Origin: Flavobacteriaceae bacterium
GTDB lineage: Bacteria > Bacteroidota > Bacteroidia > Flavobacteriales > Flavobacteriaceae
Length of the DNA: 32,909 nucleotides
Direction of reading: 5' to 3'
NCBI GenBank assembly: GCA_038124405.1
Contig: JAYPBW010000002.1
Location: forward strand, 2,185 to 35,093
Below are positions 3,036-24,434 of the stretch, one piece after another. The notes beneath the pieces are model-generated. The model searched no databases, was not told the origin of the DNA, and was given only the letters and a program-made list of their open reading frames with translations. Numbering within the stretch: position 1 is the stretch's first letter; each line of letters starts with the position of its first letter. Made by a program: the position numbers and the translations under genes.

Positions 3036-3043
3036 TATTTTTG
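3036..3043 (+). promoter_or_regulatory. Candidate -7 promoter box (TATTTTTG) driving the cobalamin riboswitch / btuB transcript
   Basis: Exact TAnnTTTG match. The predicted transcription start, about 5-7 nt downstream, coincides with the first base of riboswitch helix P1 (3049). Confidence 0.5.
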
Positions 3044-3048
3044 GATTG

Positions 3049-3217
3049 TCTTTGGTTTTTTTCAATCATTGAGAGAATTAAAAGGGAATTTGGTGCAATT
3101 CCAGAACTGTTCCCGCAACTGTAAGCCGTCCTTGTAAAAGGGCCGTCACATACTTCAACCACTGTGCTTGTCATGGGAAGGGTGGCGTAACGGGTAAGTC
3201 AGGAGACCTGCCAAAGA
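3049..3217 (+). promoter_or_regulatory. Cobalamin (adenosylcobalamin/B12) riboswitch aptamer
   Basis: Closing helix P1 pairs TCTTTGG (3049-3055) with CCAAAGA (3211-3217). Conserved core strings are present: AAAAGGGAA, GGTGCAATTCC, CTGTTCCCGCAACTGTAA, CCACTG...GGGAAGG, and the B12 box AGTCAGGAGACCTGCC (3198-3213). It lies directly upstream of a TonB-dependent receptor gene. Confidence 0.9.
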
Positions 3218-3318
3218 ATAACAAACGTCCAACTTTCGGGATAAAGGTTTGGGGGTAAGGATCTGGCTTTAAAGCCCAGACTCGTGCATCCATATTGTTC
3301 CGATCAACACGATTGATC

Positions 3319-5289
3319 ATGATTAAACCAAAGAGCGTTGTGCTCGTTTTGGCTACTTTTACTGGCCTTGCTTCAGGTGCTTTAGCTCAAAATTTAAATG
3401 ATTCCTCCAAGCAGAATGATTCTTTAATGACCAAAAGAGACTCGCTGAGTACGGTTCATTTGACCACTAAAATTTTGTCCAAAGGGACTACCTCTTCAGA
3501 TCGTATAATTTCAATCGACCAACAGGTTCTCAAGTCATTTGCTGGTCAATCTTTAGCTTCAGTACTCAATCAAATTGGTGGCATCGAGGTAAACGGAGCC
3601 ACCGGTCATCCCGGTCAAAACTCAGGGCTTTACGTGCGGGGAGGAAATAACCGACAAGTCCTGCTTATGATCGATGGGGCCGTAGTCAATGACCCCTCAA
3701 GCATTGCCACTGATTTTGATTTACGACTTTTAGCCATCAATCAAATTGAGTCTATAGATGTGATTAAAGGTCCGTCCAGTGTGCTTTATGGCTCTGGAGC
3801 AGCTACAGCGGTTATTTACATCAAAACTAAGGCACATAAAGACCAAGGTATCTCGGTGAATTTGGAGCAAGTCTTGGGCACCAATCGAGGGCCTAATGAT
3901 GATCCATTGTCGGGTATTTCAAGGCACTCTATGCTACGGGTCGCTGCGCGACAGGGTGCATGGGTCTTTCAGGCTCAAGCTTCAGGAAGATTCACTGATG
4001 GTCTCTCTGCTGTCACTGCTCAAGATGGGGAAGCTGCGTTAAACCCCGATGAGTTTTCACAAACCAACGGTCGCTTCCTCATTAAATATAACCCTAGTGA
4101 AAAATGGTCCATGGAGCAATTCGTGGCCTACGATTTTATTCGTCAAGATTATGATCGATTTGATTACCGTGATGCGCCTTTTCAAAGCACGTCTACCCTC
4201 TGGCGCACCGGCGGGAGTTTTTACTATAACGGAAGGAGCTCCAAGTATGAATTTCACGATCAGTGGTCTCAAACCGAAAGAGTAATCAATAGTGATTTTC
4301 CAGCCGTATACAAAGGATTAAACTACAATGCAGATCAATTCATAACCACTAAATGGAGCGATCAACTCGGGACGGTCATTGGGACTCAGGGCGGTTGGTC
4401 CGCTATGGATTTGGCCCAGGCTTTTGGTCCAAACCTTCCTTTGAGCACCTCGCTAAGACCGGCAGATAGTCGCGTCTATTTTCTGGACCCTTATTTGAAT
4501 ACCCAATGGAACTGGAAAGAACAGTGGCAGATTGATGCCGGATTCCGTTGGCATCACCATCAGACCTATGGAAATCAATTGGTTTATCAATTGGGTGGAA
4601 GTTATGCTTGGAAAAGTGCTCAAAGTCAATGGGAGATTTTTGCCAAGCACGGTACATCATTCATTGCGCCATCACTTTATCAGCAATTTGACCCCATTTA
4701 CGGCAACACCGACTTGTTGCCAGAATTTAATCGCACCAATGAATTTGGAGTCGAATGGCGTTTTTCTGGTCAAAAAATATCGATACAATATTTTGATCGT
4801 CTTGAGGAACAAGCGGTATCGTTTCTGTTGATCGATCCTGAACAATTTGTTTATCAGTACGCCAATAACGAATCCTTGCAGAAAAGAAGAGGGTTGGAGG
4901 CCGGTGTCATTCTAAAAATGAGCCAGCAGGCTAATTTAACAGGGCACTATACCTACATTCACTCTCCTGATAACGATCTCTTGCGCATACCACCCCACAA
5001 ATTCAACATTAATGCCAATTACACCCTAAGTACTGAGGAATCCATCGGGATCCGTTGGACCTGGTCCGATGCCAGAATGGATCAATTTTTTAATGCCAAT
5101 ACTTTTGAAACGGAGTCGGTCTCCTTGCCGTCCTACCATTGGTTAGAGGGCGTTTATCAATGCCAGTTGTCTCCCAATATGAGCGGGGTTTTAGCCATTA
5201 CAAATCTGTTGAATCAAAGCGCAATTCCAATTTACGGTTATGCATCTCAGGGAAGAAATGTCAGATTATCGCTCCGTTGGGATTTTTGA
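3319..5289 (+). CDS. btuB: TonB-dependent outer-membrane receptor, BtuB-like (vitamin B12/cobalamin transporter)
   Basis: Signal peptide MIKPKSVVLVLATFTGLASGALAQ, plug-domain motifs (IEVNGATGHPGQ, YVRGG, IDGAVVND, IDVIKGPSSVLYGSGA) and a C-terminal ...LRWDF with terminal Phe. It is controlled by the cobalamin riboswitch. I prefer the ATG at 3319; the ORF track starts at TTG 3295. Confidence 0.85.
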   Translation: MIKPKSVVLVLATFTGLASGALAQNLNDSSKQNDSLMTKRDSLSTVHLTTKILSKGTTSSDRIISIDQQVLKSFAGQSLASVLNQIGGIEVNGATGHPGQNSGLYVRGGNNRQVLLMIDGAVVNDPSSIATDFDLRLLAINQIESIDVIKGPSSVLYGSGAATAVIYIKTKAHKDQGISVNLEQVLGTNRGPNDDPLSGISRHSMLRVAARQGAWVFQAQASGRFTDGLSAVTAQDGEAALNPDEFSQTNGRFLIKYNPSEKWSMEQFVAYDFIRQDYDRFDYRDAPFQSTSTLWRTGGSFYYNGRSSKYEFHDQWSQTERVINSDFPAVYKGLNYNADQFITTKWSDQLGTVIGTQGGWSAMDLAQAFGPNLPLSTSLRPADSRVYFLDPYLNTQWNWKEQWQIDAGFRWHHHQTYGNQLVYQLGGSYAWKSAQSQWEIFAKHGTSFIAPSLYQQFDPIYGNTDLLPEFNRTNEFGVEWRFSGQKISIQYFDRLEEQAVSFLLIDPEQFVYQYANNESLQKRRGLEAGVILKMSQQANLTGHYTYIHSPDNDLLRIPPHKFNINANYTLSTEESIGIRWTWSDARMDQFFNANTFETESVSLPSYHWLEGVYQCQLSPNMSGVLAITNLLNQSAIPIYGYASQGRNVRLSLRWDF

Positions 5290-11913: not shown

Positions 11914-12240
11914 TTATGGTGCCTCAGGGGCAAGCCTAACTTTTACACCTTCAAGACCTGGAGTAATTGGTATTTGACATCCCAATCTAGAATTTCTTTC
12001 TACAAAATAGGCTTCGTCAAGCATTGCCTCTTCATCATCATTTCGTTCACCAAAATGCTCATCGGTTAGAATATATACTTGGCATGAAGCACACATAGCC
12101 ATGCCACCACAAATTCCTTCAACAGGTAGTTCATAGCCCTTACAAACCTCCATTAAATTTAGATTCATATCTGTAGGAACAGAAAATTTGTGTTCAGTTC
12201 CTTCCCTGTCTATAACGGTAATATTGATATCTACACTCAC
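11914..12240 (-). CDS. [2Fe-2S] ferredoxin, adrenodoxin/putidaredoxin (vertebrate) type
   Basis: Cluster ligand pattern C-x5-C-x2-C (CGGMAMCASC) plus a distal LGCQ. The GTG start overlaps the TAG stop of the upstream reductase gene by 1 nt. Confidence 0.88.
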   Translation of the reverse strand: MSVDINITVIDREGTEHKFSVPTDMNLNLMEVCKGYELPVEGICGGMAMCASCQVYILTDEHFGERNDDEEAMLDEAYFVERNSRLGCQIPITPGLEGVKVRLAPEAP

Positions 12241-13271
12241 TACTTTACGGTTTGCTTTTGTTGTTGTTCTTCAAAGCCCTGCACCCCTTGTACAGTTGTA
12301 TATTTTAGTGTGAATTTTTTGTCAGGATTTATGATTTTATAGGCTGTTTGTACAGCGAGAGTGGCTTCGTGGAAGCCACATAGAATAAGCTTTAATTTTC
12401 CTGGATAGGTATTGACATCTCCAATTGCAAAAATCCCAGGTCTATTCGTCTGGTAGTCAAATGTGTCTACTACAATAGCATTTTTTTCAATATCTAATCC
12501 CCAATCTCCAATGGGGCCAAGTTTTGGAGATAATCCAAATAAGGGAAACCATAAATCAGTTGCAACCGTTGTTTGTTCTTCTTTGTTATGGATTACAACA
12601 GCGTTTAACGAGTCGGCTCCTTTTAATTCTTTTACCTCTGCAAATGTGTGAAGTTTCATTTTTCCTTCGGCTGCCAATTCGTGTGCTCTAGATACAGAGT
12701 CTTTGTGTGCTCTAAAACGATCACTTCTATGTACTAAATGAACAAAACTTCCTTTTTCGGCAAAATAAATAGCCCAGTCAAGTGCCGAATCTCCACCACC
12801 AGAAATAACCATATCGATACCTTCAAATTGATCTGGGTCTTTCACAATGTACCGAACGCCTTTGTCTTCAAAGTCGCCAATGTTAGCAATGAGAGGTTTC
12901 CTAGGTTCAAAACTTCCTAGCCCACCCGCGATCATAACTACAGGTGCGTGGTGTGGTGTTCCCTTATTGGTGGTAACCACAAAGGAACCATCTTCTTGCT
13001 TTTCTATACTGTCTGCACGTTCACCTAAAGTAAAACCTGGCTTAAATGGCGCTGCTTGCTCCATTAATTTGTCAACTAATTCTCCAGCAAGCACAGAAGG
13101 ATACCCCGGAATGTCGTAAATAGGTTTTTTGGGATATATTTCTGAGAGTTGCCCTCCGGGTTGAGGAATGGCATCTATAAGATGGCAACGAAGTTTCATG
13201 AGTCCCGCTTCAAATATGGCAAAAAGGCCAACTGGTCCAGCTCCAATTATAATGATATCGGTTTTAATCAT
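12240..13271 (-). CDS. Thioredoxin-reductase-like ferredoxin-NADP(+) reductase (YumC / Chlorobaculum FNR type)
   Basis: Two dinucleotide-binding motifs (IIIGAGPVGLFA and VISGGGDSALDWA). It lacks the CxxC redox pair found in the genuine trxB of this window, and a ferredoxin gene follows immediately. Confidence 0.82.
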   Translation of the reverse strand: MIKTDIIIIGAGPVGLFAIFEAGLMKLRCHLIDAIPQPGGQLSEIYPKKPIYDIPGYPSVLAGELVDKLMEQAAPFKPGFTLGERADSIEKQEDGSFVVTTNKGTPHHAPVVMIAGGLGSFEPRKPLIANIGDFEDKGVRYIVKDPDQFEGIDMVISGGGDSALDWAIYFAEKGSFVHLVHRSDRFRAHKDSVSRAHELAAEGKMKLHTFAEVKELKGADSLNAVVIHNKEEQTTVATDLWFPLFGLSPKLGPIGDWGLDIEKNAIVVDTFDYQTNRPGIFAIGDVNTYPGKLKLILCGFHEATLAVQTAYKIINPDKKFTLKYTTVQGVQGFEEQQQKQTVK

Positions 13272-13839
13272 TTTTTTCGAGTAATTTTTCTGTTAATACG
13301 TTCATAGCTGCAATTTTTTGCTCAAAATCACCCTTTAGGCTATTTCGATAAACATAAAGTTTATCTAATAATGCGTTAGTTTCATCTGGCAAAAAGCCTT
13401 CTAGCCACTGGCGCATTCGTTTTGCTAAAGTAGGGGATTTTCCGTTTGTTGAAATAGCTACTTTTAAATTCCCTTTTGTTACAATACCGCCCATATAAAA
13501 GTCACAAAGCGGAGGATTATCTGCCACATTTACTAAAATATGTTTCTTTCTGCACAGATGATAAACCCTGGTGTTTACTTTCGGTACATCTGTTGTGGCA
13601 ATAACAATGTTTTTATCTTTTAAAAATCTACGCTTAAAGCTGCTATGGATTACTGTTACATTTTTGTTTTTGATAAATTCTTTTGTCTCCTTACGCACCA
13701 TTGGGCTCACCAGAGTCACGTTTGCATTGGGAGAGGATTTAAAAAGGAATTGTAACTTTTCAAGTGCAACAAAACCACCTCCCACAATGAGAACTTTTAG
13801 TTGTTCTGTTTTTAAAAAAATAGGGTATAGGGTGTTCAT
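13264..13839 (-). CDS. Precorrin-2 dehydrogenase / sirohydrochlorin ferrochelatase (SirC/Met8/CysG N-terminal-domain type)
   Basis: Rossmann motif VLIVGGGFVALEKL and a size typical of siroheme synthase N-terminal-domain proteins. I prefer the ATG at 13839, which overlaps the cobA TGA stop (ATGA). The ORF track starts at 13869. Confidence 0.8.
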   Translation of the reverse strand: MNTLYPIFLKTEQLKVLIVGGGFVALEKLQFLFKSSPNANVTLVSPMVRKETKEFIKNKNVTVIHSSFKRRFLKDKNIVIATTDVPKVNTRVYHLCRKKHILVNVADNPPLCDFYMGGIVTKGNLKVAISTNGKSPTLAKRMRQWLEGFLPDETNALLDKLYVYRNSLKGDFEQKIAAMNVLTEKLLEKND

Positions 13840-14597
13840 GCGTACTGCAGCTCTTCTTGAATTTTCCACAATGATGTTTGGTCTTCAACGGCGTGTCCCA
13901 CAAATATGGTAGCTGGATTGCTTATGCCTTCTTCTTTAACGCGAGTAGCAATCGTATTTAAGGTTCCTTTCACCCATTTTTCGTTTGGTAATGTTCCGTT
14001 TTGAACAATAGCAACTGGAAAATCAGCAGACTTATACTTTTTAAAAATGCTCATAATTTCCTCAAGGTGAGTCATGCCCATAAGGATAACAACCGTAGCT
14101 GAAGATTTTGCCGCATGACTAATATCTTCCGACGGTTTCCCGTCACATGTATATCCAGTAGTAACCCAAATACTTTCAAATTGACAACGCCTAGTAAGGG
14201 GAATTCGGTGTGCAGCCGCAATACCTGTAAATGAAGAAATTCCAGGGATAAGTTTAGCAAATATTCCAAAGCGTTCAGCATGCGCAATTTCCTCTGCAGC
14301 GCGCGCAAAAACAGAGACATCACCTCCTTTTAATCTAACTACGTTTTTTCCTTCTTTAACAAAATCGACTAGCATCCTGTTAATTTCTGCTTGCTTAAAA
14401 GAATGCTCTCCTTTTCTTTTTCCCACAAAAAAGTGCTTTCCAATAGTGTTGTGTGAAAGGATTTCCGCATTGACCAATGCATCATAAAGAATAACATCTG
14501 CTTCTTTAATGATGTTAATTCCCTTGACAGTAATTAATTCGGGGTCTCCGGGACCAGCCCCAACAATGGTAAGACTGCCGCTAGTTTTTTTGTGCAT
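13836..14597 (-). CDS. cobA: Uroporphyrinogen-III C-methyltransferase (SUMT)
   Basis: Motifs IVGAGPGDPELITVKG, VVRLKGGD and IPGISS, typical of the tetrapyrrole methylase family. Confidence 0.9.
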   Translation of the reverse strand: MHKKTSGSLTIVGAGPGDPELITVKGINIIKEADVILYDALVNAEILSHNTIGKHFFVGKRKGEHSFKQAEINRMLVDFVKEGKNVVRLKGGDVSVFARAAEEIAHAERFGIFAKLIPGISSFTGIAAAHRIPLTRRCQFESIWVTTGYTCDGKPSEDISHAAKSSATVVILMGMTHLEEIMSIFKKYKSADFPVAIVQNGTLPNEKWVKGTLNTIATRVKEEGISNPATIFVGHAVEDQTSLWKIQEELQYA

Positions 14598-16653
14598 TTC
14601 TAACGTTTTTTATCCATTCTATTACATGTTTTGCCTCTCGCAGGTATATTTTAGCAAACGATTCACTAGGCGAAGTACTGTTTAGTAGTCGTGTAATGTT
14701 CCCAAAGGTGTCATTCTCTATGCTACTGTAACTTGGAAAATGAGTTTCAAAAGCATCTACAATAGAGTGATGCGAGTTTATTTTTGCTGCGCGTGTAGTG
14801 AGAAGCGCTTTGGCTGCGCGAATTCTACCTGCATAACTATAATATATACTATTTGCCCATGCATTATTTTCAAGAGCCATTTTAGCTTTTTCAAGATGCT
14901 CTTCGGCGTCAAATAATAATGTCTGGACCAAGTCTATGGTTACCCCAGCACATTCTCCAACTCCAATAGCTTTTTTATACACATCTTCATTTCCCCAATC
15001 TATGAAATCACTTTCTTGAAGTATTGATGTGTCTGCATAACCTTTTAGGTTTTGATAGAAATAATCCGTCTCTTTTCTTAGGTAATATTGTAGAAAGGTT
15101 TCGTTTGACTCGGCGTTTGTGTCAAAATCTTCCAATAACCAACGCAATACCTCAGGTGTACGTTTTGCAGGAACTTTTAGCGCCTTGTCTGCGTATCGAC
15201 CTTCTCCATTTCCTAATACACCACCACCAAGAAGTACTTGTGTAGCAGGCGCAATATTTCCATTTGATTTTACCGTCATACCTTGAAACCCAATATCGGC
15301 AATGGCATGCTGCCCGCAAGCATTCATACAGCCACTAATTTTAATGGTTAGGTTATGTTTTGTAATCACATCAGGATATTCTTGTTCAATAACGCACTGC
15401 AGTTCATTCGCTAATCCCATACTACTCGCAATTCCTAAATTACAAGTATCTGTTCCAGGACAAGCAACAATATCATTTATTTTGTGAAAACCAGGTTTGG
15501 CTAAATCAAGTTGAACTAGTGCCTGGTACAGCGCTTCAAGATTAGATTCTTTAATTCCACGAAGTAAGATGCTTTGTCCAATTGTAAAACGTAAATCGTC
15601 TCCACAAAATGCTTCTACCACTTCTGCCAGAGCTCTCGCTTTATCAGATGAAATATCTCCAGTTTTGATAGGAAGTCCAACTGAAACAAAACCAGATTGT
15701 TTTTGTGAAAACACATTGCTTGCTTTCCAGTTTTCATAGATTTCATTAGGCATGTCGCTTACTGCAAAATCCTCGGTTTGCTTTAGCTCAATTTGTATAT
15801 CAGGTATAGCTATCTTTTTTGGGCTAATAGCTCTATAAACTTCATTGACACGTTCATTGAACGTATCAAATCCCTGTTCTTTAATTAAGAACTTCATTCG
15901 TGCTTTGTTGCGTCTATTTCGCTCTCCATACTGATCGAATACACGAACAACAGCCTCGCTAAAAGGGATAAATTCCTTTACTGAAATAAATTCTTTAATA
16001 ACATCTGCAACTCGTGGTTGAGCACCAATACCACCGCCTACTAGCATTTTAAAACCACGCTTATTGTTTTTTATAACAGGTATAAATCCAATGTCGTGCG
16101 TAAAAGTTATGGCGTCATCTTTTGCTGAACTTGAAAATGCAATTTTTATTTTTCTTCCCATGTCCTGACAAATAGGATTGCGTAAGAAATACTGAAAAAA
16201 TGCATGCGCATAAGGCGTAACATCAAAAGGTTCATTAGGGTCTATCCCTGCCATCGCAGATGCCGTAATATTTCGGATCGTATTACCGCACGCCTCTCTC
16301 ATGGTGATGTCATCTTGTTCAAGTTCTGCCCATAGCTCAGGCGTTCTATCTAAAGAGACGTAGTGAATTTGAATGTCTTGGCGTGTTGTGATGTGCAAGT
16401 TTCCATTGGAATATTCGTCGGAAACCGCGGCAATTCTTCGCAATTGTTTGGAGCTACATTTCCCATAAGGAATCTTTATGCGCACCATTTGAACACCTTG
16501 CTGCCGTTGTCCATAAACGCCTCTGGCTAGACGAAGACTTCTAAACTTTTCCTCATCCATTTTTCCTTCCTTGAAAGCAAAAATTTTCTGCTCAAGTTCT
16601 AGAATATCATGTTCAACAATGGGGTCTTCTATCTCAGTTCTAAAACTTCTCAT
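14581..16653 (-). CDS. sir: Assimilatory sulfite reductase hemoprotein, ferredoxin-dependent (NirA/Sir) type, with a C-terminal extension of about 120 aa
   Basis: Siroheme-[4Fe-4S] cysteine motifs CPGTDTC (C398, C404) and CMNAC (C442, C446) and duplicated nitrite/sulfite reductase repeats. It is embedded between cysN and the siroheme synthesis genes. Residues 571-690 lie beyond the expected core. Confidence 0.88.
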   Translation of the reverse strand: MRSFRTEIEDPIVEHDILELEQKIFAFKEGKMDEEKFRSLRLARGVYGQRQQGVQMVRIKIPYGKCSSKQLRRIAAVSDEYSNGNLHITTRQDIQIHYVSLDRTPELWAELEQDDITMREACGNTIRNITASAMAGIDPNEPFDVTPYAHAFFQYFLRNPICQDMGRKIKIAFSSSAKDDAITFTHDIGFIPVIKNNKRGFKMLVGGGIGAQPRVADVIKEFISVKEFIPFSEAVVRVFDQYGERNRRNKARMKFLIKEQGFDTFNERVNEVYRAISPKKIAIPDIQIELKQTEDFAVSDMPNEIYENWKASNVFSQKQSGFVSVGLPIKTGDISSDKARALAEVVEAFCGDDLRFTIGQSILLRGIKESNLEALYQALVQLDLAKPGFHKINDIVACPGTDTCNLGIASSMGLANELQCVIEQEYPDVITKHNLTIKISGCMNACGQHAIADIGFQGMTVKSNGNIAPATQVLLGGGVLGNGEGRYADKALKVPAKRTPEVLRWLLEDFDTNAESNETFLQYYLRKETDYFYQNLKGYADTSILQESDFIDWGNEDVYKKAIGVGECAGVTIDLVQTLLFDAEEHLEKAKMALENNAWANSIYYSYAGRIRAAKALLTTRAAKINSHHSIVDAFETHFPSYSSIENDTFGNITRLLNSTSPSESFAKIYLREAKHVIEWIKNVRNAQKN

Positions 16654-17897
16654 GCGGTTTCAATAAATCCAACACCTGCGGTGTTGTATGTTTGTGGGTC
16701 AATTAAAATAAAGGATCCTAATGCTGGATTGTCTTTGTAGGGCTTTGTAGCCAAAGGTTGTGCCATTGCTAAGGCTCCTTTTCCAATATCGTTTAGCTCT
16801 AGTTGATTTGCCTGACTTTGCTCTAAAGCCTCTAAATCTATTTTTGAGCGCACACTTTGTATTTTTACTAAACTTCGTTGAATACCTTGCTGCAACCAGT
16901 ATTTGTTTCCAACAGAAAGTGGCGTGTCTTGCATCCAACAGAATGTTGCGCTTACACTTTTCCCACGATTTACATTAGCACTTTCATTTAAAATACTGTC
17001 TCCTCTAGAGGCGTCAATCTCATCAACTAATAAAATAGTACCATTTTCTCCAGATTCAAGTTTTTCAACTGTAGTGCCGTATTTCTCAATTCGTTTAATT
17101 ACACTTTTTCTTCCAGAAGGATGAATATTTACTGGATCGCCCACAGAAAAACTTCCCGAGCGTACATTTCCTGCAAATCCACGATAATCGTGTAATTCTT
17201 CTCGTTTTGGACGAATGACATATTGAATTTGGAATGCACCATCAGAGGCTTCATTGCTTTCTATTGGAAGGGACTCGATCAACTCTAATAAAGGGCTTCC
17301 TGAATACCAGTTTAGTTTTTCAGATGAAGCCATGATGTTTTCATTGTATAAAGCTGATACGGGAGTATAGAAGTATGTAACTCCTTTATTTCCATGTTTT
17401 TCAGCGAGGTCTTCAAGTGTTTTTTTGATGTTTTCAAATACTTCTTGGCTATAATCTACCAAGTCCATTTTATTCACCGCAAAAATGATTTGTTTTATGC
17501 CCAACAATTGAGCAATAAAAAAGTGACGCTTCGTTTGTTCTATTACTCCTTTTCTAGCGTCAAGCAAAATGATAGTTGCTTGCGCGTTAGAAGTTCCAGT
17601 AACCATGTTTCTGGTGTATTCTACGTGTCCGGGCGAATCAGCAATTATAAATCTCCTTTTCGGTGTAGAAAAAAATATATGCGATACGTCTATAGTTATA
17701 CCTTGCTCTCTTTCGGTTAGAAGTCCGTCGGTAGCAAGTGAAAGATCTAAATACCCAAATCCACGAGCTTCGCTTCTTTCTTCAATATGCTGAATTTGAT
17801 CCGTTTTTAGTGAACCAGTTTCGTACAATAGTCTACCAATTAATGTGCTTTTTCCATCATCAACACTACCAGCAGTTGCAATTTTGATTAGTTCCAT
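16650..17897 (-). CDS. cysN: Sulfate adenylyltransferase subunit 1 (GTPase), without a fused APS kinase domain
   Basis: G1 motif GSVDDGKSTLIGRL, DSPGH and NKMD. At 415 aa there is no C-terminal CysC domain. Confidence 0.93.
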   Translation of the reverse strand: MELIKIATAGSVDDGKSTLIGRLLYETGSLKTDQIQHIEERSEARGFGYLDLSLATDGLLTEREQGITIDVSHIFFSTPKRRFIIADSPGHVEYTRNMVTGTSNAQATIILLDARKGVIEQTKRHFFIAQLLGIKQIIFAVNKMDLVDYSQEVFENIKKTLEDLAEKHGNKGVTYFYTPVSALYNENIMASSEKLNWYSGSPLLELIESLPIESNEASDGAFQIQYVIRPKREELHDYRGFAGNVRSGSFSVGDPVNIHPSGRKSVIKRIEKYGTTVEKLESGENGTILLVDEIDASRGDSILNESANVNRGKSVSATFCWMQDTPLSVGNKYWLQQGIQRSLVKIQSVRSKIDLEALEQSQANQLELNDIGKGALAMAQPLATKPYKDNPALGSFILIDPQTYNTAGVGFIETA

Positions 17898-17898
17898 A

Positions 17899-18789
17899 TT
17901 AAAAATATCCTACTTTTTTACGTTCCTCCATAGCTCCTTCAGACCTTTTGTCGTCCATACGTGCTCCTCGCTCCGAAACATTAGACCCTCCAATTTCATT
18001 TATGATTGTATCAAGTTCTGTTGCTTCAGAGAGTACAGCAGCAGTACAACTCATATCGCCCACAGTTCGAAATCGTACTGACGTATGTTTTCGTTTATCT
18101 GTTTCGGCTACATGTACAAACTCAGAAACAGGCATCCATTGATTGTCACGCATGAAAACCTCACGTTTGTGTGCATAATATATTGAAGGAATTTCCAGCT
18201 TTTCCTCTTTAATGTAATGCCAAACATCCAGTTCGGTCCAGTTACTAATAGGAAATACACGAACATTTTCTCCATTGTGAATCATACCGTTTAACATGTC
18301 AAACAGTTCTGGGCGTTGTAGTTTTTCATTCCATTGACCAAAATCGTCTCTGACAGAGAACACGCGCTCTTTTGCACGTGCCTTCTCTTCGTCTCGGCGT
18401 GCACCACCCATACAAGCATCAAATTTGTGCTTTTCAATGGTGTTTAATAGTGTAGTGGTTTGCAAGCTATTACGACTTGCATGCCTCCCTTTTTCTTCCA
18501 CTACGTTGCCCGCATCAATATCATCCTGCACATGCCCAACGATGAGTCTGAGCCCGTGCTCTTCCACAAGCTTATCCCTAAGTTCAATGGTTTCTGGAAA
18601 GTTATGCCCCGTATCTATGTGTACTAGCGGAAATGGAATGGCTGCTGGAGCAAAAGCTTTTCTTGCTAAATGCAACAAGGTAATGGAGTCTTTTCCACCT
18701 GAAAAAAGTAGACAAGGATTGTCAAACTGACCTGCTACTTCTCTTATGATATAAATAGATTCTTCTTCTAATTGTTTAAGGATGCTCAT
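17899..18789 (-). CDS. cysD: Sulfate adenylyltransferase subunit 2
   Basis: PP-loop SGGKDS, and the strings LVHIDTGHNFPE and RFRTVGD are typical of CysD. Confidence 0.93.
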   Translation of the reverse strand: MSILKQLEEESIYIIREVAGQFDNPCLLFSGGKDSITLLHLARKAFAPAAIPFPLVHIDTGHNFPETIELRDKLVEEHGLRLIVGHVQDDIDAGNVVEEKGRHASRNSLQTTTLLNTIEKHKFDACMGGARRDEEKARAKERVFSVRDDFGQWNEKLQRPELFDMLNGMIHNGENVRVFPISNWTELDVWHYIKEEKLEIPSIYYAHKREVFMRDNQWMPVSEFVHVAETDKRKHTSVRFRTVGDMSCTAAVLSEATELDTIINEIGGSNVSERGARMDDKRSEGAMEERKKVGYF

Positions 18790-19496
18790 GATTTAATTGT
18801 ATGAAGTCCACATTCTTTTTTACTAGATTCCCACCACCAACGACCGGCACGAATGTCTTCACCTTCCGTGATGGGTCGTGTACATGGGGCACAACCAATA
18901 CTCACAAATCCTTTTTTATGTAGTGTGTTTTGTGGTACATTATGTGATGTTAGGTAACGTTCCACATCTTGCAAAGTCCAACGTAGAAGAGGGTTAAATT
19001 TTATAATATTAAACGTAGTATCAAAACTGAAATAGTCCAACCCTGCTCTATTTTGAGATTGATTACTTCGTAAACCAGTTACCCATACATCCTTGTTCGC
19101 AAGTGCTCGTTTTAAGGGGTCAATTTTTCTAATGTTGCAACATTCTTTACGGTTTTCTACAGATTCATAAAAGCTGTTTGGTCCTTTGGTTGTCACCAAC
19201 TCCTCTACGACGCTGTTATCAGGCGCATAGACTCGGATACTGTTCTTAAACTTTTTTTGCGTAAGCTCAAGGACATCATAGGTTTCTTGAAATAATCTCC
19301 CAGTGTCTAATGTGAATATTTCTACAGGTAATTCGTTGGTAGCAATATGGTGTGTGATTACTTGATCTTCTTGACCTAAGGAGGTTGAGAAGGTTATCCT
19401 TCCAAGTTCTTGATTGAGTAGGAATTTGAAAAGGCCTCCAATTGTATCAATTGATTGCGCATTATTATTTAACGCATCTACTTTTAATTGACTCAT
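18786..19496 (-). CDS. cysH: Adenylylsulfate (APS)/phosphoadenylylsulfate reductase, thioredoxin-dependent, Fe-S (APS reductase) type
   Basis: C-terminal catalytic ECGLH, plus the cluster cysteines RKECCNIRK and GCAPCT (CC...CxxC). I prefer the ATG at 19496, which overlaps the upstream TGA stop (ATGA). The ORF track starts at 19523. Confidence 0.88.
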   Translation of the reverse strand: MSQLKVDALNNNAQSIDTIGGLFKFLLNQELGRITFSTSLGQEDQVITHHIATNELPVEIFTLDTGRLFQETYDVLELTQKKFKNSIRVYAPDNSVVEELVTTKGPNSFYESVENRKECCNIRKIDPLKRALANKDVWVTGLRSNQSQNRAGLDYFSFDTTFNIIKFNPLLRWTLQDVERYLTSHNVPQNTLHKKGFVSIGCAPCTRPITEGEDIRAGRWWWESSKKECGLHTIKS

Positions 19497-19747
19497 TTTC
19501 TGCCCCATTTTACAGTATTCCAAACACGTTCATGAACGACATACAAAACCATTTTTGTAACCAATTCAATTCCACCAATAGAAAGCGCAAAAGCTAGTTT
19601 CCCTGTAATGATATAGGAAATAAGGATGGTGTCTAGCGTTCCTATAATACGCCAGCTAATAGATTTAAGTATCGATCTAGACCAGCCTTCACTTTGAGTG
19701 CTTTCCTTTCTTTTTTTAGAGTTAAGTATAAGTTGATCTACAATCAT
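19493..19747 (-). CDS. DUF2061-like small membrane protein, first gene of the sulfate assimilation operon
   Basis: The string KSISWRIIGTLDTILISYIITG...IELVTKMVLYVVHERVW has a two-helix pattern resembling DUF2061. I prefer the internal ATG at 19747. The longer ORF to 19837 would run through the divergent promoter and into the rrf2 start. Confidence 0.6.
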   Translation of the reverse strand: MIVDQLILNSKKRKESTQSEGWSRSILKSISWRIIGTLDTILISYIITGKLAFALSIGGIELVTKMVLYVVHERVWNTVKWGRK

Positions 19748-19763
19748 CGATATTAATTCGGGG

Positions 19764-19771
19764 CAAATATA
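19764..19771 (-). promoter_or_regulatory. Candidate -7 promoter box (TATATTTG) of the sulfate assimilation operon
   Basis: Exact TAnnTTTG match on the minus strand, 16 nt upstream of the ATG at 19747. Confidence 0.45.
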
Positions 19772-19778
19772 ATAAATA

Positions 19779-19793
19779 CTATCAAATTGATAG
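19779..19793. promoter_or_regulatory. Perfect 15-bp palindrome CTATCAAATTGATAG, candidate Rrf2 operator shared by two divergent promoters
   Basis: The 7-nt arms CTATCAA / TTGATAG flank a central A. With one mismatch it extends to a 21-bp near-palindrome (ATaCTATCAAATTGATAGgAT). It lies between the two candidate -7 boxes at 19764-19771 (-) and 19816-19823 (+). Confidence 0.5.
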
Positions 19794-19815
19794 GATATAT
19801 AGATTATATTTTTTT

Positions 19816-19823
19816 TAAATTTG
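19816..19823 (+). promoter_or_regulatory. Candidate -7 promoter box (TAAATTTG) of the rrf2 operon
   Basis: Exact TAnnTTTG match with its G 5 nt upstream of the A of the rrf2 ATG (19828). This implies a leaderless or near-leaderless mRNA. Confidence 0.4.
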
Positions 19824-19827
19824 AAAT

Positions 19828-20238
19828 ATGATATCAAATAAATGTAAATACGCTATAAAGGCATTAGTTTATATTGCGAAGTATGATAATGGTTCCAAGG
19901 CAGTTATGACTTCTGATATTGCTAGAGAGCAAAATATACCTCGAAAATTTTTAGAGATTATTCTTCGCGACTTAAGGAATAACCGCATATTGGAGAGTAA
20001 AAGGGGTAAAGACGGCGGCTTCAGACTGCTCCGCCCAGCAGAAGATATAAGTTTGACCGAAATTATGCGAATCATAGACGGGCCTATTGCCATGCTGCCC
20101 TGCGTTTCACTGAATTATTATCGTTCATGTGATGAATGTGAAGAAGAAAGCTGTGAAATTAAGGGGGTTTTCGAACAAGTCCGAGACAGAACGCTAGAAG
20201 TACTTAACGGTAAAACAATTAAATCCTTAACTTTGTAA
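19828..20238 (+). CDS. Rrf2-family transcriptional regulator with a four-cysteine cluster (IscR/NsrR-like, not CymR-like)
   Basis: N-terminal Rrf2 winged helix (KCKYAIKALVYIA...IPRKFLEIILRDLRNNRILESKRGKDGGFRL). Cysteines sit at 92, 101, 104 and 109 (PCVSLNYYRSCDECEEESC). Confidence 0.88.
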   Translation: MISNKCKYAIKALVYIAKYDNGSKAVMTSDIAREQNIPRKFLEIILRDLRNNRILESKRGKDGGFRLLRPAEDISLTEIMRIIDGPIAMLPCVSLNYYRSCDECEEESCEIKGVFEQVRDRTLEVLNGKTIKSLTL

Positions 20239-23514: not shown

Positions 23515-23599
23515 CGGAGAAAGAGGGATTCGAACCCCCGGAGGTGTGACCCTCAACGGTTTTCAAGACCGCCGCATTCGACCACTCTGCCATTTCTCC
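23515..23599 (-). tRNA. tRNA-Ser (anticodon UGA)
   Basis: The minus strand folds by hand into a cloverleaf: acceptor GGAGAAA/TTTCTCC, D stem GCA/TGC, anticodon stem GCGGT/ACCGT with loop CTTGAAA, long variable arm GAGG...CCTC, and T arm GGGGG-TTCGAAT-CCCTC. Length is 85 nt and no CCA is encoded. Confidence 0.93.
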
Positions 23600-23678: not shown

Positions 23679-24434
23679 ATGATTGATTTTCCTTTTGACC
23701 TACTGTTACTTGTTGGCGCAGGACTTTTTGCTGGCTTTATTAATACTATGGCTGGAGGTGGATCCTTGCTTACATTGCCCTTGCTTATTTTTTTAGGATT
23801 GCCATCGGCTACTGCAAATGGAACTAACAGAGTGGCGATTCTTGTGGCTACAAGTTCAGCTACCTTAGGATTTCGAAGTAAAAAAATAAATTCTTTTCCT
23901 TTTAGTTTATACTTGGGTGGAATAGCACTGTTGGGAGCTCTTGTTGGAGCCCGAATTGCTATCGATATTGATGGGAGTATATTTAATAGGATTTTGGCAA
24001 TAATCATGATAGTTGTAGTTGTGCTAATGGTGTTTAAGCCTAAGTACAGCACCGAGGCAACTTCTCCTAAGACTACAGGTAAAACCTTAATTTGGTCTAT
24101 GATAGCCTTTTTCTTTATTGGAATTTATGGAGGTTTTATTAATGCAGGGATTGGTTTTATCATGATGCTGTTCATGAATTATGTTAACCGAATGGACTTA
24201 GTTCGTGTAAATGCTACAAAAGTTGCTGTAGCATTTATATATACCACTGGAGCGCTGGCTACGTTCGCGCTTAGTGGTCATATTGATTGGAAATATGGAA
24301 TTGCTTTAGCTATTGGGAATTCTGCTGGAGCTTTTTTTGCTTCTCGTTACGCGGTAAAAAGAGGAGAGGGGGTAATAAAAGCCGTAATGATAACAATGGT
24401 TGTGGCAATGTCAGTGAAACTGTGGTTTTTCTAA
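23679..24434 (+). CDS. TauE/SafE (TSUP, DUF81) family anion permease
   Basis: 251-aa polytopic membrane protein with the family-typical N-terminal GGGSLLTLPLLIFLGLPSATANGTNRVAI and an internal repeat (GGFINAGIGFIMM). Confidence 0.85.
   Translation: MIDFPFDLLLLVGAGLFAGFINTMAGGGSLLTLPLLIFLGLPSATANGTNRVAILVATSSATLGFRSKKINSFPFSLYLGGIALLGALVGARIAIDIDGSIFNRILAIIMIVVVVLMVFKPKYSTEATSPKTTGKTLIWSMIAFFFIGIYGGFINAGIGFIMMLFMNYVNRMDLVRVNATKVAVAFIYTTGALATFALSGHIDWKYGIALAIGNSAGAFFASRYAVKRGEGVIKAVMITMVVAMSVKLWFF

Follow-up and report, generated by a model that had tools for sequence, protein, structure and literature searches.

A nine-gene sulfate assimilation operon of Flavobacteriaceae whose sulfite reductase is probably fed by a shared ferredoxin reductase and ferredoxin

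How heterotrophic bacteria without CysJ supply the six electrons needed to reduce sulfite is understood in a few species only. The closest described system is the fpr2-cysIXHDNYZ cluster of Corynebacterium glutamicum, for which the chain NADPH -> Fpr2 -> CysX -> CysI has been proposed; deletion of fpr2 merely lengthens the lag, and its paralogue Fpr1 is apparently essential (PMC1266029). In Ruegeria pomeroyi, a chain leading from NADPH through a ferredoxin-NAD(P)+ reductase (FNR, SPO2637) and a ferredoxin (Fd, SPO2377) to a sulfite reductase (SiR, SPO2634) has been reconstituted (PMC13188885). Here we analyze a stretch of 32,909 nucleotides (the window) from a Flavobacteriaceae bacterium (GenBank assembly GCA_038124405.1, contig JAYPBW010000002.1, positions 2,185 to 35,093). 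It carries nine minus-strand genes in the order DUF2061, cysH, cysD, cysN, sir, cobA, sirC, fnr, fdx, which plausibly form one assimilatory sulfate reduction operon with a single transcript, using the adenosine 5′-phosphosulfate (APS) route. A first-pass annotation, made by a model from the sequence alone, had presented this locus as a self-sufficient operon encoding its own electron chain from NADPH to SiR. Our analysis suggests instead that the SiR, an enzyme of the NirA type, is probably fed from NAD(P)H by the FNR and the ferredoxin (Fdx) of the operon, the pair being shared with housekeeping functions.

The operon functions in the manner of the C. glutamicum cluster, without belonging to its type. 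Both contain a NirA-type SiR without CysJ (CysI in C. glutamicum), CysH, CysDN and a siroheme gene, and in both an FNR gene and a small putative Fe-S carrier are linked to the cys genes, the C. glutamicum cluster being co-regulated. Fpr2 is however related to FprA and adrenodoxin reductase, whereas the FNR here is of the thioredoxin reductase (TrxR) type. Similarly, CysX is an 82-aa protein with four cysteines while the carrier here is an adrenodoxin-type Fdx, and fpr2 is divergent whereas our fnr is the penultimate cistron. A sulfate permease (CysZ) and a SirB-like chelatase are also part of the C. glutamicum cluster, whose SiR has no HEPN domain and whose regulator is McbR in place of the Rrf2 protein found here. 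The coexistence of Fpr2 and Fpr1 matches the pattern of 50 two-copy Flavobacteriaceae genera (50/107 of those with SiR). Unlike in C. glutamicum, no housekeeping FNR paralogue was found in the present genome, whose assembly (1.44 Mb, 107 contigs) is 82% complete.

The chains of R. pomeroyi and of non-photosynthetic plastids follow the same three-component logic, and the locus-tag numbers suggest that in Ruegeria the genes for FNR and SiR are close to each other. The FNR and ferredoxin types of plastids and Ruegeria differ from the TrxR-type FNR and the adrenodoxin-type Fdx. The overall reaction and the ultimate donor NADPH are the same for CysJI of Escherichia coli, but no CysJ was found here, the SiR is distant from CysI (1e-14), and the route passes through APS and not through 3′-phosphoadenosine 5′-phosphosulfate. 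The siroheme-[4Fe-4S] cysteine pattern of the SiR is shared with NirA/SirA of Mycobacterium tuberculosis (1zj8) and with plant nitrite reductases (NiRs; 3b0h and 2akj), which are without its 113-residue C-terminal domain of HEPN fold; all of these enzymes depend on ferredoxin. As for the FNR, it resembles the known TrxR-type enzymes (YumC, 5ygq, 3ab1, 2zbw) by the absence of a CxxC motif and by a conserved C-terminal tail. Known TrxR-type FNRs pair with flavodoxin and with ferredoxins of the 4Fe-4S or plant type, whereas the conserved neighbour here is an adrenodoxin-type 2Fe-2S Fdx. This is no new kind of pathway, and the concept has a precedent in C. glutamicum (PMC1266029). The Flavobacterial version differs from the described systems by the FNR class, the carrier class, the HEPN extension and the link of the FNR-Fdx pair with mrp and nfu. 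A literature search, weak on subscription journals, found no published FNR/Fdx/SiR system of Bacteroidota.

Four lines of evidence support a chain from NAD(P)H through FNR and Fdx to SiR: the class of the SiR, the fact that no other donor was found in the assembly, the extra gene copies tied to SiR, and the adjacency of fnr and fdx. Gene identities were established with Pfam and NCBIfam models, bit scores being compared with the NCBIfam cut-offs. The SiR contains two NIR_SIR and two NIR_SIR_ferr domains, and its cluster/siroheme cysteines C398, C404, C442 and C446 are invariant among 38 relatives. Among solved structures, it matches plant NiR (3b0h, 1e-48) and M. tuberculosis NirA (1zj8, 1e-47) far more strongly than maize SiR (1e-23) or E. 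coli CysI, and for this reason ‘NirA/SirA-type’ is a more accurate name than the ‘plant-type SiR’ of the first-pass annotation. The equivalog models of the NirA family and of Sir/CysI all score below their cut-offs (NF007126, 254.2 bits against 523; TIGR02042, 108.7 against 731.5; TIGR02041, 106.2 against 756.6). By sequence, the protein is assigned to a Bacteroidota subfamily of its own, for which more than 595 relatives were found; the closest, at 63-82% identity, come from metagenome-assembled genomes of Flavobacteriaceae including Candidatus Arcticimaribacter. The closest characterised relatives support a ferredoxin-dependent class for this putative subfamily.

The FNR gave full-length matches ranging from 8.7e-97 to 1e-70, with the enzymes of Rhodopseudomonas palustris (5ygq, 8.7e-97), Bacillus subtilis (YumC, 3lzw, 3.8e-71), Thermus thermophilus (2zbw), Bacillus cereus (6gas) and Chlorobaculum tepidum (3ab1), against 5e-28 for the best thioredoxin reductase and 135.8 bits for the TrxR model TIGR01292, whose cut-off is 343.5. 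Its sole cysteines are C29 and C298. In the Fdx, the ligands C44-x5-C50-x2-C53...C88 follow the adrenodoxin pattern and are invariant in 17 orthologues; PDB matches include a Yah1 homologue (2mjd, 5e-16), FDX2 (2y5c) and putidaredoxin (1oqq), and the score of 38.6 bits with TIGR02007 (fdx_isc) is below the cut-off of 132.1 of this ISC-ferredoxin equivalog. Both protein classes had thus been named correctly at the outset, and the stated absence of a CysJ flavoprotein also held across the 82%-complete assembly. In the latter, neither the CysJ FAD-binding domain (PF00667) nor flavodoxin (PF00258) was found, nor was a soluble plant-type FNR, the sole match being an NqrF-like open reading frame (ORF) of 441 aa with Fer2 and NAD_binding_1 domains. 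The operon fnr is the sole copy found in the assembly, and the operon fdx encodes the sole stand-alone Fer2 protein found.

To follow the layout in other genomes, the nine proteins were compared by tblastn with 80 loci, among which 58 Flavobacteriaceae loci had enough downstream sequence. The order (rrf2)-DUF2061-cysH-cysD-cysN-sir-cobA-sirC-fnr recurs in Flavobacterium, Tenacibaculum, Christiangramia, Kordia, Maribacter and others, with fnr after sirC in 54 of the 58 loci. The nine-gene layout is widespread in marine and soil Flavobacteriaceae and common in public genomes. Assimilatory sulfate reduction as such is patchy among genera of the NS5 marine group, as described by Priest et al. (PMC9122927).

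The copy number of fnr goes together with SiR. Our phyletic sample comprised 201 Flavobacteriaceae genera, one genome each; these genera are related, so that the counts are descriptive and were not submitted to a statistical test. SiR is present in 107 of them, TrxR-type FNR in 179 and Fdx in 174. Two FNR copies occur in 50 of the 107 genomes with SiR and in none of the 94 without it, a single copy in 51 and 78, respectively, and no copy in 6 and 16. The 12 genomes with at least two Fdx copies all possess SiR, and genomes lacking FNR largely coincide with those lacking Fdx. Where there are two copies of fnr, one is located after sirC and the other adjoins fdx elsewhere; where a genome with SiR has a single copy and coordinates are listed, fnr lies beside the SiR gene. 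Linkage in 54/58 loci, together with extra copies found only with SiR, means that the association is no accident of one genome.

Nevertheless, the description of the operon as ‘self-sufficient’, with a chain of its own, could not be upheld. The FNR-Fdx pair occurs in 78 genera without SiR, and in 5/5 Flavobacteriaceae genomes examined the housekeeping pair ends an mrp(apbC)-nfu-fnr-fdx cluster, which encodes a 377-aa Mrp/ApbC protein (NUBPL-type ParA plus FeS_assembly_P), an 80-aa NifU-like protein, FNR and Fdx. The two genes also adjoin each other in Flavobacteriaceae without SiR, and four Cyclobacteriaceae have them side by side at a site away from the cys operon. The linkage with mrp and nfu suggests that electrons for the biogenesis or transfer of Fe-S clusters come from TrxR-type FNR and adrenodoxin-type Fdx. 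The pair is a general FNR-Fdx module of Flavobacteriales and Cytophagales and is not private to the sulfur pathway. Moreover, the pair in the operon is the only copy found in the genome and consequently cannot be dedicated to SiR. Viewing it as a general redox module corrects the idea of a dedicated chain, and it is also a caution that operon membership in streamlined genomes does not amount to exclusivity.

Near relatives display different states of this module. One with a complete genome of 2.2 Mb (G136) has mrp-nfu-fdx and its sole fnr in the cys operon, and another (G062) has mrp-nfu-fnr in addition to fnr-fdx in the cys operon. In the source genome, fnr and fdx are both missing after mrp-nfu (contig C69, 3289-4659), where a hairpin and a convergent ORF come next. 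In a tree of 61 FNR sequences (quick IQ-TREE search, midpoint-rooted, so that root and depth are not established), cys-linked copies form clades of their own, with 99% and 87% support in the Shimodaira-Hasegawa-like approximate likelihood ratio test (SH-aLRT), and housekeeping copies group with those from genomes lacking SiR (97%). The FNR of the window belongs to a separate clade (100% SH-aLRT), which it shares with FNRs linked to cys genes in small-genome relatives and with two sequences from genomes that lack SiR. Not one alignment position distinguishes the cys-linked from the housekeeping enzymes, and the duplicates therefore look like dosage or regulatory copies and not like specialised enzymes.

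According to the model that we consider probable, CysDN would make APS, the Fe-S-type CysH would convert it to sulfite, and the NirA/SirA-type siroheme-[4Fe-4S] reductase would reduce sulfite to sulfide, with siroheme made from uroporphyrinogen III by CobA and the CysG-N/Met8-like enzyme. The six electrons would most likely travel from NAD(P)H to the TrxR-type FNR, then to the adrenodoxin-type [2Fe-2S] Fdx and to SiR. In larger Flavobacteriaceae genomes, the module is found behind mrp-nfu and the cys operon contains another copy of fnr, in some cases together with fdx. In the small-genome lineage one pair would be left, behind sirC, serving both sulfite reduction and housekeeping, the latter probably being Fe-S biogenesis. 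The chain from NADPH through FNR and Fdx to SiR put forward in the first-pass annotation is thus supported by the ferredoxin class of SiR, by gene linkage and by the copy pattern, while its exclusivity is not, and the carrier may be a different ferredoxin.

Several observations weigh against this model or restrain it. The fdx gene follows fnr in 13 of the 58 Flavobacteriaceae loci, those with sirC-fnr-fdx including Tenacibaculum, Kordia and some Flavobacterium loci, and is absent from about three quarters of them, its place being taken mostly by metH-type genes, and fnr is part of the cys operon in none of 10 Cyclobacteriaceae loci; the position of the pair in the operon is therefore lineage-specific. 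Six genera with SiR (G005, G035, G048, G058, G119 and G123) have neither FNR nor Fdx at the thresholds used, which means that SiR of this family can use another donor. No replacement donor was found in or beside their operons (loci L142-L146), where sirC is followed by cysE, cysK, metH-type or unrelated genes, the operon of G005 running on into cysE and cysK. Proteins of 350 aa with an NAD_binding_1 domain were considered as replacement donors but are no obvious ones, as they lie in a five-gene cluster resembling a paaABCDE phenylacetate cluster by its ORF sizes only.

Other reservations concern the proteins themselves. At the site for the 2′-phosphate of NADPH, the FNRs of the window clade read LVHRSDRFRAHKDS (HRS) whereas other Flavobacteriaceae copies have HRR, so that either NADPH or NADH could be the preferred nucleotide. 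A second type of ferredoxin, of about 116 aa, 2[4Fe-4S]-type and with an internal insertion, is encoded on the minus strand of another contig (C89:3588-3950) and is a second candidate for a low-potential carrier; in Bacillus, 2[4Fe-4S] ferredoxins are the partner type of TrxR-type FNRs. Adrenodoxin-type ferredoxins often have a higher midpoint potential than plant-type Fd, and such a potential could limit reduction of the SiR cluster. Finally, with an assembly 82% complete, CysJ or another fnr-fdx pair could have escaped assembly. Gene content, junctions, family assignments and the phyletic and synteny patterns are observed, whereas we infer the single transcript, the electron flow, the nucleotide specificity and the dual role of the pair.

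These reservations leave room for other explanations. FNR and Fdx could serve to assemble or repair Fe-S clusters or to insert them into SiR and CysH, while another donor provided the electrons for catalysis by SiR. In related genomes the housekeeping copy is part of an mrp(apbC)-nfu-fnr-fdx cluster, with Fe-S carrier genes as neighbours, and the Fdx has its nearest matches of known structure in Yah1 and FDX2, proteins of Fe-S assembly. SiR and CysH are both Fe-S enzymes, and the pair persists in the 78 genera without SiR. Yet no CysJ, flavodoxin or soluble plant-type FNR was found in the assembly that could act as catalytic donor in its place. This explanation also leaves aside why an extra fnr is kept only in genera with SiR and specifically after sirC, for which a flux of six electrons per sulfite accounts better, and we regard it as unlikely. 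Alternatively, FNR might feed SiR by way of the 2[4Fe-4S] ferredoxin mentioned above, or by docking directly, for example on HEPN, bypassing the 2Fe-2S Fdx. That most Flavobacteriaceae cys operons have fnr without fdx (54 loci versus 13 of 58), that the gene for the other ferredoxin is present, and that all Bacteroidota SiRs of this family carry the conserved extra HEPN-fold domain would fit such a scheme. It is made improbable by the adjacency of fnr and fdx in two orders and by several lineages in which the cys operon acquired a duplicate of fnr and fdx together, the multi-Fdx genomes having SiR in 12 cases out of 12. As to direct docking, a reductase with FAD as its only cofactor donates single electrons poorly unless a carrier takes part, and the SiRs of genomes without FNR and Fdx still have HEPN, so that an FNR-specific dock is unlikely.

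One may also suppose that no functional link exists, the pair having been rearranged behind sirC in a streamlined genome and being merely co-transcribed there. The genome is small and gene-dense with overlapping junctions common in the window, the pair has another home with mrp-nfu in relatives, and no residues tell cys-linked from housekeeping FNRs. We find this very unlikely nonetheless, given that 54/58 loci, from many genera, have fnr joined to the cys operon, that cys-linked copies form long-standing clades of their own, and that the association between extra copies and SiR is perfect across the 201 genera.

Our preferred model, a NAD(P)H-FNR-Fdx-SiR chain shared with housekeeping, could be carried further. 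The sole FNR-Fdx pair may have moved from mrp-nfu to the cys operon under control of the four-cysteine Rrf2, which would place sulfide production and Fe-S reducing power in one regulon, and HEPN could dock or regulate FNR, Fdx and SiR as a CysJI-like complex built from unrelated parts; this is a speculation to which we give rather little weight. The preferred model itself offers a testable donor hypothesis for the SiR of Flavobacteriaceae, namely a TrxR-type FNR, usually as a second copy in the cys operon, with an adrenodoxin-type ferredoxin. Genera with one and with two copies constitute a natural experiment on the sharing and duplication of housekeeping electron carriers.

The SiR differs from a single catalytic module of about 560 aa by its length and by an extra domain that the first-pass annotation had omitted. 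Its C-terminus (residues ~578-690, window ~14584-14922, minus strand) adopts the four-helix up-down HEPN fold in the AlphaFold model, in which this region has a predicted local distance difference test (pLDDT) value of 84.6. This model superimposes on 2hsb with a Z score of 16.0 and a root-mean-square deviation of 2.5 Å over 115 residues, and on 1wol with a Z score of 14.6; Pfam HEPN (PF05168) is recognized with 24.3 bits against a cut-off of 22. An invariant D..DWG...G.GECAG linker precedes the domain, which is conserved in more than 595 Bacteroidota SiR homologues. The Rx4-6H RNase motif is not conserved among the 38 relatives, the R and H columns both being variable, and the domain is probably a non-nuclease HEPN. 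No description of an SiR bearing HEPN was found in the literature search, with its same weakness on subscription journals.

Table 1. Features of the cys operon and of its control region (window coordinates)
Feature	Coordinates	Strand	Basis
DUF2061 small membrane protein, 84 aa, cistron 1	19493..19747	-	Pfam PF09834, 3.7e-23
CysH, thioredoxin-dependent Fe-S-type APS reductase	18786..19496	-	TIGR02055, motifs
CysD, ATP sulfurylase small subunit	17899..18789	-	NF003587, TIGR02039
CysN, ATP sulfurylase GTPase subunit	16650..17897	-	TIGR02034
Siroheme/[4Fe-4S] sulfite reductase, NirA/SirA clade, 690 aa	14581..16653	-	Pfam, PDB matches
CobA, uroporphyrinogen-III C-methyltransferase	13836..14597	-	TIGR01469
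CysG-N/Met8-like precorrin-2 dehydrogenase, 191 aa (sirC)	13264..13839	-	TIGR01470
TrxR-type (YumC-like) ferredoxin-NAD(P)+ reductase (fnr)	12240..13271	-	PDB matches
Adrenodoxin-type [2Fe-2S] ferredoxin (fdx), GTG start	11914..12240	-	PDB matches, Cys pattern
Divergent control region, cys operon/rrf2	19748..19827 (80 bp)	.	Sequence read, motif scan
Rrf2-family regulator, candidate operon repressor	19828..20238	+	Pfam Rrf2, 4.6e-33

All nine ORFs, which occupy positions 11914-19747, were confirmed from the ORF list and by direct reading of the junctions, and every coordinate, junction and gene identity given in the first-pass annotation was reproduced (Table 1). Stop and start codons overlap as ATGA at 19493-19496, 18786-18789, 16650-16653 and 13836-13839. 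The overlap is 17 nt between sir and cobA (14581-14597) and 8 nt between sirC and fnr (13264-13271), while the TAG of fnr and the GTG of fdx share one nucleotide at 12240 and a spacer of 1 nt separates cysD from cysN. Short or negative spacers are frequent elsewhere in the window, so that this packing fits an operon but is unexceptional for the genome. We prefer the ATG at 19747 as start of the first gene, because a longer ORF of 114 aa beginning with TTG, which was rejected, would overlap the start of the divergent rrf2 at 19828.

The genes for sulfate activation and APS reduction were identified by their models. CysH scored 244.1 bits with TIGR02055 (cut-off 235.3), possesses the CC...CxxC and ECGLH motifs, and has the APS reductase of Pseudomonas aeruginosa (2goy, 1e-44) as best solved match. 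CysD scored 440.7 bits with NF003587 and 399.6 with TIGR02039 (cut-off 396.6), and CysN, a protein of 415 aa, 456.9 with TIGR02034 (cut-off 336.1). The latter has no APS-kinase domain and covers only positions 23-432 of the 632-residue model of bifunctional CysNC. DUF2061 is found at the same operon position in 29/56 Flavobacteriaceae and 8/9 Cyclobacteriaceae loci.

Synthesis of siroheme from uroporphyrinogen III was already recognized as part of the operon and both enzymes are confirmed, CobA with 239.5 bits (TIGR01469, cut-off 185) and the sirC product with 121.3 bits (TIGR01470, cut-off 62.3). The latter had been called ‘Met8/SirC-like’. Its matches to CysG (6e-16) and Met8p (1.8e-15) agree with the first half of this name; that to Bacillus SirC (3dfz, 7e-10) is weaker, and we accordingly place the protein with the bifunctional CysG-N/Met8p enzymes. 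It is probably also the sirohydrochlorin ferrochelatase; a CbiX-type chelatase was not found in the 82%-complete assembly.

As noted at the outset, sulfate transport, cysE and cysK are outside the operon, and several SulP transporters as well as PALP enzymes are encoded on other contigs of the assembly. A membrane protein of the TauE/SafE family (TSUP), encoded at 23679-24434 on the plus strand, 4 kb from the operon and next to a tRNA gene (23515-23599, minus strand), may, by its family, transport sulfite, sulfate or anions of sulfonate type.

Transcription of the operon would probably start from a single promoter beside a palindromic operator, which the operon would share with the divergent gene of the Rrf2 regulator. 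In most related loci this gene accompanies the cys operon, pointing either away from it or in the same direction. The control region includes a perfect 15-bp palindrome, CTATCAAATTGATAG, at 19779-19793 between rrf2 and the cys operon, and a TCCTAT-N7-ATAGGA-like counterpart occupies the same position in 18/18 relatives with divergent rrf2 (loci L002-L024). This palindrome is likely the Rrf2 operator. Close to it, a Bacteroidetes-type -7 box, TATATTTG, is present on the minus strand at 19764-19771.

A scan for TANNTTTG gave a single minus-strand match within 11914-19830, located in the control region. Inside the operon itself (11914-19747), none occurs on the sense (minus) strand and three occur on the antisense strand, for which the A-rich sense strand is probably the explanation. 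The strict Bacteroidetes promoter pattern TTTG-N17-23-TANNTTTG has zero matches in the operon, including its start; it thus misses the operon's own start and is uninformative on internal promoters. In a scan for sigma-70-type promoters, sites were no more frequent than in shuffled sequence. Rfam detected no riboswitch or other RNA element in or before the operon. Elsewhere in the window, a cobalamin riboswitch was identified on the plus strand at 3036-3229 (108 bits), 5′ of an ORF of 664 aa at 3295-5289.

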